A program made the translations under genes and the position numbers. DNA of 64,000 nucleotides from an uncultured Alphaproteobacteria bacterium. GTDB lineage: Bacteria > Pseudomonadota > Alphaproteobacteria > CAAHEQ01 > UBA3637. Below, one piece after another: positions 14,266-17,200 of this stretch (position 1 is its first letter; every line of letters starts with the position of its first letter). Below the pieces are notes generated by a model. It was not told where the DNA came from, searched no databases, and was given only the letters and a program-made list of their open reading frames with translations. Location: positions 59,085 to 123,084 of the forward strand of contig CALXWZ010000002.1 of assembly GCA_944392555.1 (NCBI GenBank). Reading direction: 5' to 3'.

Positions 14266-17200
14266 GTGTTATCAGAGAAACAAAAAGCCGTTTTATCGCA
14301 AATCGGGATGTTGGATTATCCCGATATTGAGGGAATTGTGCGCTATGCCGGGGAAGATATAACGCCGTTTATCAGCTATTTACAAGAGTTAAAAGAGCGC
14401 CAAGGGAAGCCAAGAGCGATGAGCGCACGGGAATATTTTTGTCCGCAGGAGCGCATGTATCGATTCGCCCCTGGCATGCAGGCAGTTGTGTGCGCGGGAA
14501 AGATTTGCCAATATCGCTTTAAACAAGATGATTTAATCATCGGCGATGGTTTTTATATCAACGACGGACATCTTTTTGAATTGCCCGATAACGCATATTT
14601 GATGGACGGCGTGGTTGTTTCCGTGGAAACAAAAAGCGGTAAAGAAGAAGTTAAACTTAAAGCAACGGGAGGTATGTATCAACCGTTGGTGGATATTCTA
14701 CGGAATGAAATCGGTGGGAAAAAGCCGTTTGTGCAACAAAATGAACAAGGGCAATATGAACTTTATATTCAAGGGAAATCAGAAAAGGAAGAGCCGATTA
14801 AAATTGCCGTTGCGGATAAAGGGAATTTGATTGAACTTTGTTTGCCAACAACGCAAAAACTATTGAACGGACAACTTGATTTTGCCCCGCATCTCAAAAA
14901 ATTGACGGCGCCTTGCTTGGTGAATACCGATGATTTTACATTGAGAGATGCCCCATGTTTGGAAGTCTGTCAGTGTCCGAATTTAAAAAAAGTCGGCTAT
15001 TATTTTTTACATAAAACGCCGAATCTTGTTGCCTCTTATCAACGCAAAACGCATCCGTTAAAGCGCTTGAAAGGGGAGGTATTTTTTCACCAATTGCGCC
15101 AAGCCAATGTGTTGGATTTATCGGATATTGTTGAAATTGTGCAGTATGCGGGTTGGGAAGCAGAGCCGTTAATTCCGCATTTGCGTTACATAGCGTATAA
15201 AAGAAATGCCTTGAATACAACTTCCGAACGCCGTTATGCTTCACAAGAAGAAGCGTATACTGCTACTTTGAATTTATTGAAACAAGCGGGATATACCAGA
15301 GTTATTCATCCGACAACGCTCAAAGAACAAAACAGTATTGCGTATTTATTTAGCGAATACGAACGGTTATGCACATTTAGAGATTCGGAACGATATAAAA
15401 ATTATTTTATCCTCCACTGTTGCAAGGAAAATGCTGAAAAAATAACGCGGAGCGAACATCCGCAAAGGCAAGATGAATATGGAACAAGTGTTATCTCCAT
15501 TCAAATCAAAGAGGGCTTTATTTCGATTAAAAACAGATATAATCACACTGTTAATGGGAGTGATTCAACATTTGATAATAATCCCGATAATATCATTGAA
15601 GGCTTAACACAAGCGCTGAAAGAAGCATCGGGATGTGAGTTTATCGCCTCGGATATCGGGTTACCCGATGATATGATTTTTTTGGGTAATCGCTTGCTTC
15701 GGTTTAATGTTGAAAGAAATAACATTCGCGTCGGCGAAAATTTTTATACGGATAATCAACGGGTATATCCGATTGATTTGGGCACACATTTCGTGATGGA
15801 CGGATACGCTTTAAGTTTGCAAGCGGAAAGCCAAGAAAAAGGGTGTATGCCCGATTCGTTGCCTCAACAAAATGCAATTATAAAAAAAGTTGTGAATTTA
15901 ACGGACAGGAGAGGAAAGCAAGATTCCTTTTGCCAAGTTATCCAACAAGAAATTGAAGGCAAGAAACTCACCGTTACGCAAGATAAAATCACAGGGAAGC
16001 GCACGTTTTATGCCAATGGGGAAGTGATTGCCGTAACGGAGCATGGGCGATTGGTTGAATTAAATTTACTTAAAACAACGGAAATTGATGCGTATTTTTT
16101 GGAATATGCCCCTTATTTGAGAACATTTACGGCGCCAAAATTAATCAAGCTCGGGGCACATTCACTTTACAACGTTCCAAAGTTGATAGTTTTTAAGGCG
16201 CCGGCGGTAAGGTTTATCAGCGAGTTATGTTTGACATACGCGCAAGAATTGGAAGTTTTTCAGGCCGAGAAAGTGGAAGAATTTGGAAACGGGTGCCTTT
16301 TAGATGTGAAGAACTTACCGGAACTGCGTCTTCCATACCTTAAAAGAGCGGGAAATAATTTTTTAAGGCTTGCAAAAAATCTACACGTGTTTGAAGCTCC
16401 AGAAGCAGAGGAATTCGGGGCGGGTTCGTTGGAAAAAGTGGGGATTAAACACCTGAATTTGCCAAACGTGCGGATTATTCATAACGGATTTTTAAGTTGG
16501 GCAGAAAATTTGATTTCTTTTACGGCACCCAATTTGGAGGAAGCGGAAAATGAGTGTTGCACTTTGTTGGATAAAGTGCCTGTTTTATCGTTTCCAAAGC
16601 TCAAAAAAGCAGGGGAGTATTTTTTATGGCAAGTCCCGTCATTAACTTCCTTGCAGGCGCCTGTTTTGGAAGAGGTTGGTCATTTTTCTTTATTACAGGC
16701 GGATAAATTAGAGATATTAAAACTTCCTTTACTCAAGAAGACAGGTTCGCATTTTGCCAAAAAACCCATTCGGTTAAAAAGAGTTGAATTAGATTGTTTG
16801 GAAGAAATGGGGGATTATTGCTTTGAAATTTTGAATGAAATAACTATTTTGAAATTTCCAAAACTTAAAACAGTGGGAAAAAAATTTGTATCCGTAGCCC
16901 CTCAATTAAAATTATTTCAAGCGCCGGAACTGGAAGAAACGGGCGATTATTCTCTGAGTGAATTAAAATCAGCCATAACGGTTTACGTGCCGAAATTGAA
17001 AAAGGGAATGAAACAATTTGCGATGATTGCACCAAGGCTCAGATTTTTAAATGTCAACAACATGCAAGAAATGCAGGATAATAGTTTGGTGGCTTTAAAT
17101 GAAATAACATCTTTGGTATTTTCCAAGCTGAAAAAGGTGGGTCCGAATTGTTTAATGTATTGTCCGAAATTGGCATATTTATCGGCGCCGATGATTGAGG

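Follow-up and report, generated by a model that had tools for sequence, protein, structure and literature searches.

The IpaH/SspH/SlrP effectors of enterobacteria join an NEL E3 ligase with an invariant Cys to a variable, target-selecting LRR array, and they form multicopy families in host-associated bacteria. Expanded families of Ank, TPR, and LRR repeat-protein effectors are present in the obligate symbionts Orientia, Amoebophilus, and Protochlamydia. An effector-plus-repeat layout is also found in bacterial NLR-like defense proteins. Polyvalent proteins of phages and conjugative elements, including ART-PolyVal, are said to have been described by Iyer et al. in 2017.

Here we analyze a 64-kb stretch of alphaproteobacterial DNA (the window) in which two paralogous genes, A and B, come after rpoC, among housekeeping genes (Table 1). 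Like the IpaH/SspH/SlrP effectors, the encoded proteins combine one conserved domain that has an invariant Cys with a variable LRR array, and they belong to a multicopy set of paralogs. However, the LRRs are N-terminal in IpaH and C-terminal here, where they are of the BspA/LRR_5 type; the NEL domain is all-helical, whereas the core domain of A and B is predicted to be alpha/beta; and we found no sequence or fold similarity and no T3SS signal. LRR_5 repeats connect the tails of A and B, and those of the giant viral proteins described below, with BspA-like proteins (Tannerella BspA, the Bacteroides structural-genomics LRR proteins 4fs7/4h09, and Trichomonas BspA-like proteins), and these tails match PDB entries 4fs7 and 4h09 by sequence. 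BspA-like proteins, however, lack the conserved "head" of A and B. Neither A nor B has a signal peptide or membrane anchor that is visible by eye.

F-box proteins (FBXL/FBXW) likewise place a constant N-terminal module ahead of interchangeable LRR or WD40 tails. The family described here differs in having no F-box by Pfam, a head of ~300 aa with enzyme-like invariant residues, and a bacterial and phage-borne distribution. The likeness to polyvalent proteins is that the head occurs in proteins of ~3,550 to 3,730 aa on viral contigs, is fused once to an ART-PolyVal-like domain, and in places adjoins ART-PolyVal-like genes. However, Pfam polyvalent domains (LPD, PBECR, and others) do not match the head, and most members are encoded on alphaproteobacterial chromosomes; they are not lone giant proteins that are injected. 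The symbiont Ank/TPR/LRR families resemble this one in that proteins with repeats have multiplied massively, in tandem, in partner-dependent bacteria whose genomes are small, but every copy here bears one and the same novel globular head.

TABLE 1 Features of paralogs A and B, with positions in the window
Feature	Position	Strand	Remarks
Paralog A	14266..17373	+	ORF, 1035 aa; partial head without core, then full head, then LRR_5 array
Partial head copy, paralog A	14266..15060	+	aa 1-265; N-terminal helical motif, beta-meander, ~3 LRRs; core absent
N-terminal helical motif of full head, paralog A	15061..15255	+	aa 266-330; alignment consensus, helices predicted by AlphaFold2
Conserved alpha/beta core domain (predicted), paralog A	15256..15675	+	aa 331-470; AlphaFold2, cross-clade conservation
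Reported block, paralog A	15415..15609	+	aa 384-448
Beta-meander subdomain and linker, paralog A	15676..16035	+	aa 471-590; contains invariant E482
BspA-type LRR_5 array, paralog A	16036..17265	+	aa 591-1000; Pfam LRR_5, E 2.3e-9
Paralog B	17545..20703	+	ORF, 1052 aa; plan as in A, plus a third partial unit
Core domain, paralog B	18535..18954	+	aa 331-470; substituted at family-invariant positions
Block counterpart, paralog B	18691..18885	+	aa 383-447

A conserved block precedes the LRR arrays of two paralogs

Translation of window positions 15415 to 15609 yields HCCKENAEKITRSEHPQRQDEYGTSVISIQIKEGFISIKNRYNHTVNGSDSTFDNNPDNIIEGLT (65 aa), a block that the original prediction took to be the most conserved part of the two proteins. 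The start given for it was exact, and the end, 15610, lies one base beyond the 65th codon; the range given for paralog B, about 18655 to 18890, encloses the actual counterpart. Between A and B, 43 of the 65 block residues are identical (66%), compared with 375 of 995 over all aligned positions (37.7%) and 31% in the main LRR array (binomial P = 3e-6). When all 65-column windows of the alignment were scanned, the top one (A399 to A463; 66%) overlapped the block, and identity to paralog B reached 73% in a tight core, A403 to A447. The block is therefore, as predicted, the most conserved part of the paralogs and more conserved than the repeats, with the caveat that the first 40 residues of A and B are as conserved (68%). 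The motif originally written for the segment is real, but its NRYNxxV portion masks a difference between A (NRYNH) and B (NRYND).

The description of the block as non-LRR and lying ahead of the LRR array is correct, because Pfam LRR_5 (PF13306) matches only aa 787 to 896 of A and aa 699 to 772 of B, in the C-terminal halves (37.6 and 31.5 bits, respectively; gathering cutoff, 27.7). The LRR_5 profile leaves the block unmatched, and the predicted structure of the block is a beta-hairpin with helices and not a solenoid. The LRR array of A gives repeated matches to positions 305 to 390 of a profile built from the family. Searching aa 1 to 265 of A with the same profile (hmmsearch) gave matches to profile positions 26 to 62 and 209 to 378, with positions 63 to 205 missing. 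The third partial unit of paralog B lies at aa ~830 to 966, between two LRR arrays. Of the 14 proteins in the 90%-identity cluster of B, 10 have a length of 1052 aa, and the others are shorter fragments.

The block is predicted to be the center of an alpha/beta domain

AlphaFold2 modeled the 306-aa head with a pLDDT of 90.1 and a pTM of 0.77, and the core alone with values of 93.6 and 0.87, respectively. In these models the block is the center of an alpha/beta domain of ~125 to 150 aa that is predicted to fold autonomously (A aa 331 to 470; ~140 aa). Together with the N-terminal helical motif and the C-terminal beta-meander, this core is predicted to make up the ~300-aa head (A aa 266 to 590). 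The helical motif, with the family consensus KKQNGExFA...IPxIxxIxxxAGRDAEPLLxYL, has helices at residues 2 to 10, 19 to 23, and 31 to 46 of the head model, and the strands of the meander fall within residues 201 to 275; profile positions 200 to 300 are conserved in the phage clade too. Within the modeled block, the end of strand 2 leads into the RxDxYGTS loop, a short helix, and the VISIQI/FISIK beta-hairpin, followed by the NRYNH loop, the DxT helix, and the NPD loop, where the last helix begins. The original proposal of a functional core thus agrees with a predicted globular domain around the block, but the functional unit is larger than 65 aa.

The family-invariant core residues, in A numbering, are E365, C368, T369, R375, Y379, R400, D402, Y404, G405, S407, Q412, N422, R423, Y424, N425, H426, D432, T434, N438, and D440; invariance of R, Y, G, S, Q, N, R, Y, N, D, and T was seen in the family alignment. 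Across 149 alphaproteobacterial and 30 viral sequences, 32 positions are at least 90% conserved, and ~20 of these are polar or charged. These ~20 residues, in ~125 aa, are 99 to 100% retained across clades that are only 30 to 43% identical. In the core model, C368 opens a short helix (residues 45 to 48), H426 follows ~58 residues later in a loop behind strand 4 and not on the strand, and D432 and D440 come 6 to 14 residues after that.

Purifying selection and changed residues in paralog B

Selection was measured against the orthologs in a related metagenome-assembled genome (MAG) (L008), in which the gene order, rpoC-A-B, is the same as here. The block of A is identical to that of its ortholog at 65 of 65 residues (dN = 0), and the block of B has an omega of 0.04. 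Whole-gene omega values are 0.147 for A and 0.129 for B. The C-terminal tails are poorly conserved (omega, 0.4 to 0.8) and have no consistent charge pattern. The core-less partial head of A (aa 1 to 265) is under purifying selection (omega, 0.02 to 0.26); since this copy keeps its helical motif and meander under selection, these two parts appear to have a role independent of the core.

Paralog A retains the full signature, including the family-invariant His of NRYNH. Paralog B has changes at four invariant residues (Y to H, H to D in NRYNH, and N to D and D to E in NPD), and the same substitutions are fixed in its ortholog. Strong purifying selection acts on B although its signature His is gone, which shows that at least some members do not need the whole signature in order to work; to judge from these substitutions, the role of B may be altered or regulatory.

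The head defines a large family with interchangeable tails

The head defines a large, previously undescribed, and unannotated protein family. With clusters at 50% identity, we found 1,345 representatives at an E value of ≤1e-3 and 825 at ≤1e-30; a word-index search gave 373 matches, none with a source name that accounts for the head. Exactly one core was present in each of 138 representatives examined, beginning within 80 residues of the N terminus in 132. Behind the head stand interchangeable tails (LRR_5, pentapeptide, WD40/beta-propeller, LRR_8, or DUF3737), and head-only members are common, with hundreds of LRR-free proteins of ~300 aa.

Among the neighbors in 75 alphaproteobacterial loci we found no conserved partner or immunity gene. 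The top neighbor clusters were antisense ORFs within the family genes themselves, and a cyclophilin gene occurred in 9 loci. ART-PolyVal-like paralogs adjoin a family gene in L007, L033, and L070; as these are only three loci, and syntenic, the association is not a general one. In one member (P0162), an ART-PolyVal-like sequence that scores below threshold (22.3 bits; cutoff, 31.2 bits) is fused to the head as a separate N-terminal domain, distinct from it.

At least 518 copies are present in species-representative genomes, nearly all of them MAGs of gut or rumen Alphaproteobacteria, including "Ca. Enterousia." Uncultured gut and rumen alphaproteobacterial MAGs carry at least 14 to 21 distinct copies each, in tandem arrays of up to 7. 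From copy numbers and published genome sizes, we estimate that the family takes up at least 4% of a ~1-Mb genome. Rs-D84/Enterousia bacteria have genomes of <1 Mb and have been proposed to be obligate symbionts or parasites (PMC12306168). Our literature search turned up no account of the motif or of any Rs-D84 LRR protein. Since, by our estimate, several percent of a <1-Mb genome is spent on tandem head copies with varied binding arrays, this family stands out as the most obvious candidate for the machinery of their interactions. Members also occur in nonreduced or motile Alphaproteobacteria (a ~2-Mb marine contig and a locus flanked by genes for flagella and chemotaxis), and a dependent lifestyle is therefore not universal among carriers. 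Another family gene, in a marine relative, comes after rplM-rpsI; this position and the one after rpoC here are probably coincidental.

Homologs on phage and viral contigs

The core was found on 43 IMG/VR contigs. A homolog of 573 aa, named from Caudoviricetes sp. (an abundant gut phage), exists in hundreds of variants with ~90% mutual identity. It consists of the core and the meander, without the N-terminal helical motif and without a repeat tail, and keeps every signature residue. Its gene lies in an accessory gene region, in a run of small ORFs that includes AcrIC5 and Gp49/HTH. A ParB-like protein and DUF3848 are among the neighbors in phage loci. The head is also found inside LRR proteins of ~3,550 to 3,730 aa on viral contigs. 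PHROGs v4 had no match for the head, the 574-aa phage homolog, or the ~3,550-aa protein, and tblastn searches of deposited phage genomes (INPHARED) and plasmids (PLSDB) gave none.

Comparison with known families and folds

When A, B, the head, head-only members, the phage homolog, and the giant protein were scanned against Pfam, NCBIfam, PHROGs, and PADLOC, only LRR_5 and noise came up. Nothing in PADLOC-DB rose above noise, the best match being to a ThsA Macro model (E, 0.028) in one of three members. Both individual sequences and the family profile were used to query the PDB by sequence; the tails matched LRR_5 structures, and the rest was noise. A PDB fold search with the head and core models found no match.

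The original prediction had suggested testing for similarity to papain-like, ADP-ribosyltransferase (ART), and kinase-like folds, and profile, fold, and motif comparisons found similarity to none of them. Papain-like and transglutaminase-like peptidases have their catalytic Cys at the N terminus of a helix, followed by His and Asp/Asn on a beta-sheet; in the core model, C368 opens a short helix and H426 and D432/D440 follow, with H426 in a loop. There is no significant sequence or structural similarity to any papain-like or transglutaminase-like protein. No ART Pfam model matches A, B, or the head, and no ART structure is among the fold matches. The Gly-rich loop and the VAIK, HRD, and DFG motifs of protein kinases are absent, as are Pfam and fold matches to kinases. 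The fold match and Q/R-x-x-G-x-G/A loop of GNAT acetyltransferases were not found, nor were the motif and fold similarity of PD-(D/E)xK nucleases. The residue spacing is wrong for HEPN (Rx4-6H), whose fold is all-helical. PTP (CX5R) was dropped because this family has C-x6-R and gave no fold match. The His-Me finger is excluded by a strand end without His, and HKD is excluded by the lack of Lys.

Possible functions of the head

We see about even chances that the head is an enzyme-like effector domain with variable targeting tails that acts on a partner or host cell. On this reading, the polar residues that never vary (E, C, T, R, Y, R, D, Y, S, Q, N-R-Y-N-H, D, T, N, D, and E) would come together in space as an active site or a site for a ligand. 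Target recognition or anchoring would fall to the interchangeable repeat arrays that follow the head, and the head would modify a conserved molecule, either of another cell or of one that is infected. The original suggestion of an enzymatic or ligand-binding site fits the large number of polar residues (D, H, C, N, R, Y, S, Q, E, and T) that are invariant in more than 1,000 related clusters. A thiol-dependent enzyme with a phosphate-bearing or peptide substrate would agree with the order of Cys (at a helix start), His, and Asp and with the presence of two Arg and two Tyr. Given tandem multiplication in small-genome bacteria that presumably depend on partner cells, and a gut-phage version, modifying a conserved molecule in another or an infected cell would be the most economical role. 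The signature is intact in a very common phage of the gut, which suggests that the target is bacterial and conserved. That the proteins are delivered to another cell is unsupported, since no signal peptide was seen by eye and no secretion signal was recognized.

A more specific proposal is that the core does the catalysis in a new superfamily of enzymes whose fold the PDB lacks, that abundant gut phages and small-genome, partner-dependent gut Alphaproteobacteria alike would modify with it a conserved molecule of the exploited cell, and that in the bacteria the tandemly diversifying LRR, WD40, or pentapeptide tails would direct one chemistry to many substrates. This proposal is tentative, and the balance is somewhat against it. 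An enzymatic head would enlarge the set of effector domains by a new fold and perhaps by a new chemistry. Should it prove not to be an enzyme, a group of more than 1,300 clusters that lacks a Pfam model still merits definition as a family. The 300-aa head or the phage protein offers a tractable entry via heterologous expression.

It is possible, though on the whole unlikely, that the head is instead a noncatalytic adaptor or docking module coupling variable repeat "receptors" to one conserved partner, such as a secretion or export apparatus, a protease, an envelope structure, or a host factor. One constant N-terminal head ahead of interchangeable LRR, WD40, or pentapeptide tails is what such a module would look like, by the logic of F-box proteins; the searches revealed no catalytic fold or motif of a known kind; selection acts on the helical motif and meander in the core-less partial copies of A and B; and paralog B is constrained though its His and other signature residues are lost. 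However, so many invariant polar or charged residues in so short a core would be unusual for a docking surface, the phage version keeps them all without helical motif or repeat tail, and the neighborhoods hold no conserved partner gene.

We regard as distinctly improbable a role of these proteins in cytoplasmic conflict or immunity of the bacterium itself, in which the tails would sense phage proteins, the head would be the effector, and the phage homolog would be a countermeasure or decoy. The multiplied family with tandemly diversifying tails, the absence of a visible signal peptide at the N terminus, the location of the phage homolog near an anti-CRISPR-family gene, and a layout that recalls, by analogy, NLR-like defense proteins are consistent with such a role. 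Against it, there is no PADLOC match above noise, no NTPase or other switch domain, and no defense-island context, the neighbors being housekeeping genes (rpoC and, elsewhere, rplM-rpsI), and the estimated genome share would be unusual for one defense family. That the core is a very divergent version of a known catalytic fold (papain-like or transglutaminase-like Cys-His-Asp, GNAT, PD-(D/E)xK, ART, or kinase-like) we think very improbable. The reading of the block as a mere LRR cap or irregular LRR turn that does nothing by itself, an alternative named in the original prediction, is already refuted: the C-terminal halves of the host proteins are LRR_5 arrays, but AlphaFold2 places the block in a separate alpha/beta domain (pLDDT, 93 to 98 in the block), and this domain occurs in the hundreds of LRR-free ~300-aa proteins, in LRR-free phage proteins, and ahead of non-LRR tails.

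A conserved non-LRR block in two adjacent paralogs

Two adjacent ORFs, paralogs A and B, follow rpoC in the window, which derives from an uncultured gut alphaproteobacterium, and can be aligned end to end at 35% identity. The sole Pfam recognition in either is of BspA-type LRR_5 repeats, in the C-terminal parts only. The original prediction was that a 65-aa block is unusually conserved between the two, more strongly than the repeats, and is itself not LRR. We scanned all 65-column windows of the A-B alignment, and the top-scoring window overlapped the block. Of the 65 residues of the block, 43 are identical (binomial P = 3e-6), whereas identity is 37.7% when all aligned positions are counted and 31% within the LRR array; comparable conservation was found elsewhere only in the first 40 residues of A and B (68%). 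The conservation of the block is real, beyond chance, and exceeds that of the repeats as predicted.

The rpoC-A-B order recurs on L008, a contig from a related MAG. Comparison with L008 showed purifying selection on both (omega of 0.147 for A and 0.129 for B); in the block, dN was 0 for A and omega was 0.04 for B. The 90%-identity cluster of paralog B has 14 members from several sources, 10 of them 1052 aa long and the rest shorter fragments.

Coordinates of features in the window
Feature	Position (nt)	Strand	Residues or length	Remarks
rpoC	9808..13935			directly upstream of paralogs A and B
Paralog A	14266..17373		1035 aa	
Partial head copy in A	14266..15060		aa 1-265	family profile: helical motif, meander, few LRRs; central core missing
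Block in A	15415-15609		aa 384-448	translation HCCKENAEKI...YGTSVISIQIKEGFISIKNRYNHTVNGSDSTFDNNPDNIIEGLT
Paralog B	17545..20703		1052 aa	
Partial head copy in B	17545..18339		aa 1-265	as in A
Core of B	18535..18954			
Block counterpart in B	18691-18885		aa 383-447	
Third partial unit, B only	~20035..20442		aa ~830-966	between the two LRR arrays of B
439-aa ORF	21059..22378	-	439 aa	
1011-aa ORF	47023..50058	+	1011 aa	

The block lies at the centre of a predicted alpha/beta domain

Alignment of homologues delimited a unit of ~300 aa (the head) in three parts: an N-terminal helical motif (consensus KKQNGExFA...AGRDAEPLLxYL), a central region (the core), and a beta-rich C-terminal part (the meander). 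Motifs of the central region are AGY, GExLCTF, R, YxIxH, RxDxYGTSVISIQ, GGFISIKNRYNHTV, DxTF, and NPDNIIxGL. AlphaFold2 modelled the ~300-aa unit of paralog A with a pLDDT of 90.1 and a pTM of 0.77, and the central 151 aa alone with values of 93.6 and 0.87. The latter model has a four-stranded sheet (residues 19-23, 57-63, 85-91, and 94-98) with helices alongside. The block begins where strand 2 ends, takes in the hairpin of strands 3 and 4, and stops as the last helix starts; it is therefore not an LRR turn, in agreement with the confinement of LRR_5 matches to the C-terminal parts. In the model, it forms the middle of an alpha/beta domain that is autonomous and predicted with confidence. This core is under strong purifying selection. 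The partial duplicate of the head at the N-terminus is rare in the rest of the family, where it was seen in proteins P0187 and P0220.

The core defines a large family with variable tails

Residues 280-520 of paralog A matched 373 proteins (E down to 5.5e-55), mostly of ~300 or 400 aa and usually with an Alphaproteobacteria MAG as the stated source. Almost none had a Pfam domain, and no source name among the 373 accounted for the head. An exhaustive search of 1.84 billion representatives with the family profile matched 1,345 proteins at an E of <=1e-3 and 825 at an E of <=1e-30. The core is a large family, unannotated by any library searched. Exactly one core was present in 138/138 representatives examined, starting within 80 residues of the N-terminus in 132 of them. 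Behind the head were LRR_5, pentapeptide repeats, WD40 or beta-propellers, LRR_8, DUF3737, or no tail; the domain is a constant head ahead of variable repeat tails. Such a modular plan, in which multicopy families of host-associated bacteria join a conserved head to repeat tails that vary, is of an already known kind.

At least 518 copies were confirmed in bacteria (one genome per species), nearly all of them from uncultured Alphaproteobacteria of the gut or rumen, whose labels vary (Ca. Enterousia, "Rickettsiales bacterium," or "Micavibrio sp."). Genomes of Rs-D84/Enterousia are reported to be <1 Mb, without a respiratory chain and with few biosynthetic pathways, and an obligately symbiotic or parasitic life has been proposed for these bacteria (PMC12306168). 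In individual MAGs, a few 12-kb loci together encoded at least 14 to 21 distinct ORFs with a core. These small-genome gut Alphaproteobacteria thus show a strong expansion of the family, which they share with gut phages. Exceptions were a gene that follows rplM-rpsI on a ~2 Mb marine contig and a locus with flagellar genes on one side and chemotaxis genes on the other. The neighbours in 75 alphaproteobacterial loci yielded no conserved partner gene.

As many as seven family genes stand in tandem within 12.8 kb (L024, L035, L044, L066 [JAFTTR010000007.1], and other MAG loci). A roe-deer colon MAG had at least 21 distinct copies; we estimate that copies in such a MAG make up several per cent of a ~1-Mb genome.

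Phage relatives

Relatives of two kinds are encoded on 43 IMG/VR contigs. The 570-aa type keeps the core and meander (profile positions ~62-300) without the N-terminal helical motif and ends in a coiled-coil-like region. It has hundreds of variants with ~90% mutual identity on contigs of 100-200 kb, one of them named "Caudoviricetes sp." in nr; some lie near a ParB-like protein and DUF3848. The giant type (~3,550-3,730 aa) has the head at ~aa 1430-1880, followed by LRR_5 arrays; its other ~2,000 residues had no match in Pfam, PHROGs, or PDB. A 224-kb contig, L004 (ENA ERZ27283911 k119_940975), encodes a head-only 305-aa protein (8001-8918), flanked by several small free-standing ORFs with only LRR_5-like repeats. 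By tblastn, no homologue was found in deposited phage genomes (INPHARED) or plasmids (PLSDB).

A 573-aa gut Caudoviricetes homologue (L126 10001-11722 [Logan ERR13992549_1711]; also L083-L125) stands in a run of >50 small same-strand ORFs and is the largest of them; an AcrIC5-family anti-CRISPR gene and a Gp49/HTH pair belong to the same run. Giant ORFs occur at L098 (1375..12027), L094, L095, L099, L116, L118, and L121-L123, on IMG/VR contigs of 30-70 kb. The L004 contig looks phage-like; its small ORFs number in the dozens, lie on the same strand, and have no Pfam matches.

Invariant residues and possible function

The core was compared across 149 sequences from Alphaproteobacteria and 30 from viruses, clades only 30-43% identical. 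Positions conserved at >=90% include E, C, T, R, Y, R, D, Y, G, S, Q, N, R, Y, N, H, D, T, N, and D, plus a Glu in the meander; of the 32 positions in this class, ~20 have a polar or charged residue. Paralog A is complete (E365, C368, T369, R375, Y379, R400, D402, Y404, S407, Q412, N422-H426, D432, T434, N438, D440, and E482). The core of B is changed at four family-invariant positions: Y to H, H to D (NRYND), and, in the NPD motif, N to D and D to E. The L008 orthologue of B carries the identical four substitutions, with an omega there of 0.03-0.04, which suggests that B may be an altered or noncatalytic paralogue.

On our preferred reading, the head would be an enzyme-like effector module, with target specificity conferred by the repeat tails. 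Because phages retain the same signature, a conserved bacterial molecule is the probable target. A noncatalytic adaptor or docking module is a less likely alternative for the head. Of known catalytic arrangements, the head may at most recall one, through its order of Cys (at the beginning of a helix), His, and Asp.

The head had no match in Pfam, NCBIfam, PHROGs, or PADLOC, nor in PDB by sequence and profile, and the best Foldseek E value against PDB was only 0.82; the head itself is without a detectable relative in the searched family libraries or PDB. That the family comprises cytoplasmic sensor-effector defence proteins is, in our view, improbable. Inspection of the N-termini of A and B by eye recognised no secretion signal.

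The predicted functional core thus stands in part: the block is a non-LRR functional core, and plausibly a catalytic one, and none of the effector folds proposed for it (papain-like, ART, and kinase-like) is supported by a family-library or PDB match.

In protein P0162, an ART-PolyVal-like domain is fused ahead of the head (22.3 bits, against a cut-off of 31.2 bits). At L007 (2383-7984), three tandem paralogues of 516-540 aa have a faint ART-PolyVal signal and the motifs YRGT...SHFGT. In each of the three syntenic MAG loci L007, L033, and L070, such tandem paralogues immediately precede a family gene, and a radical-SAM-like 451-aa ORF lies downstream.

Other ORFs in the window

The 1011-aa ORF matched neither Pfam (E <=1e-4) nor the profile of the family; its surroundings are otherwise housekeeping genes, among which it is another large protein without annotation. 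The 439-aa ORF, also without a Pfam match, is hydrophobic at its N-terminus and contains long "TTTSPL" repeats, rich in Thr and Pro, together with three or four Cys-rich modules (FDCRIVVNNEDxTICNxYRAxAExCCEDAGGVLDENCSCCIGCD); it looks like a secreted mucin-like repeat protein.
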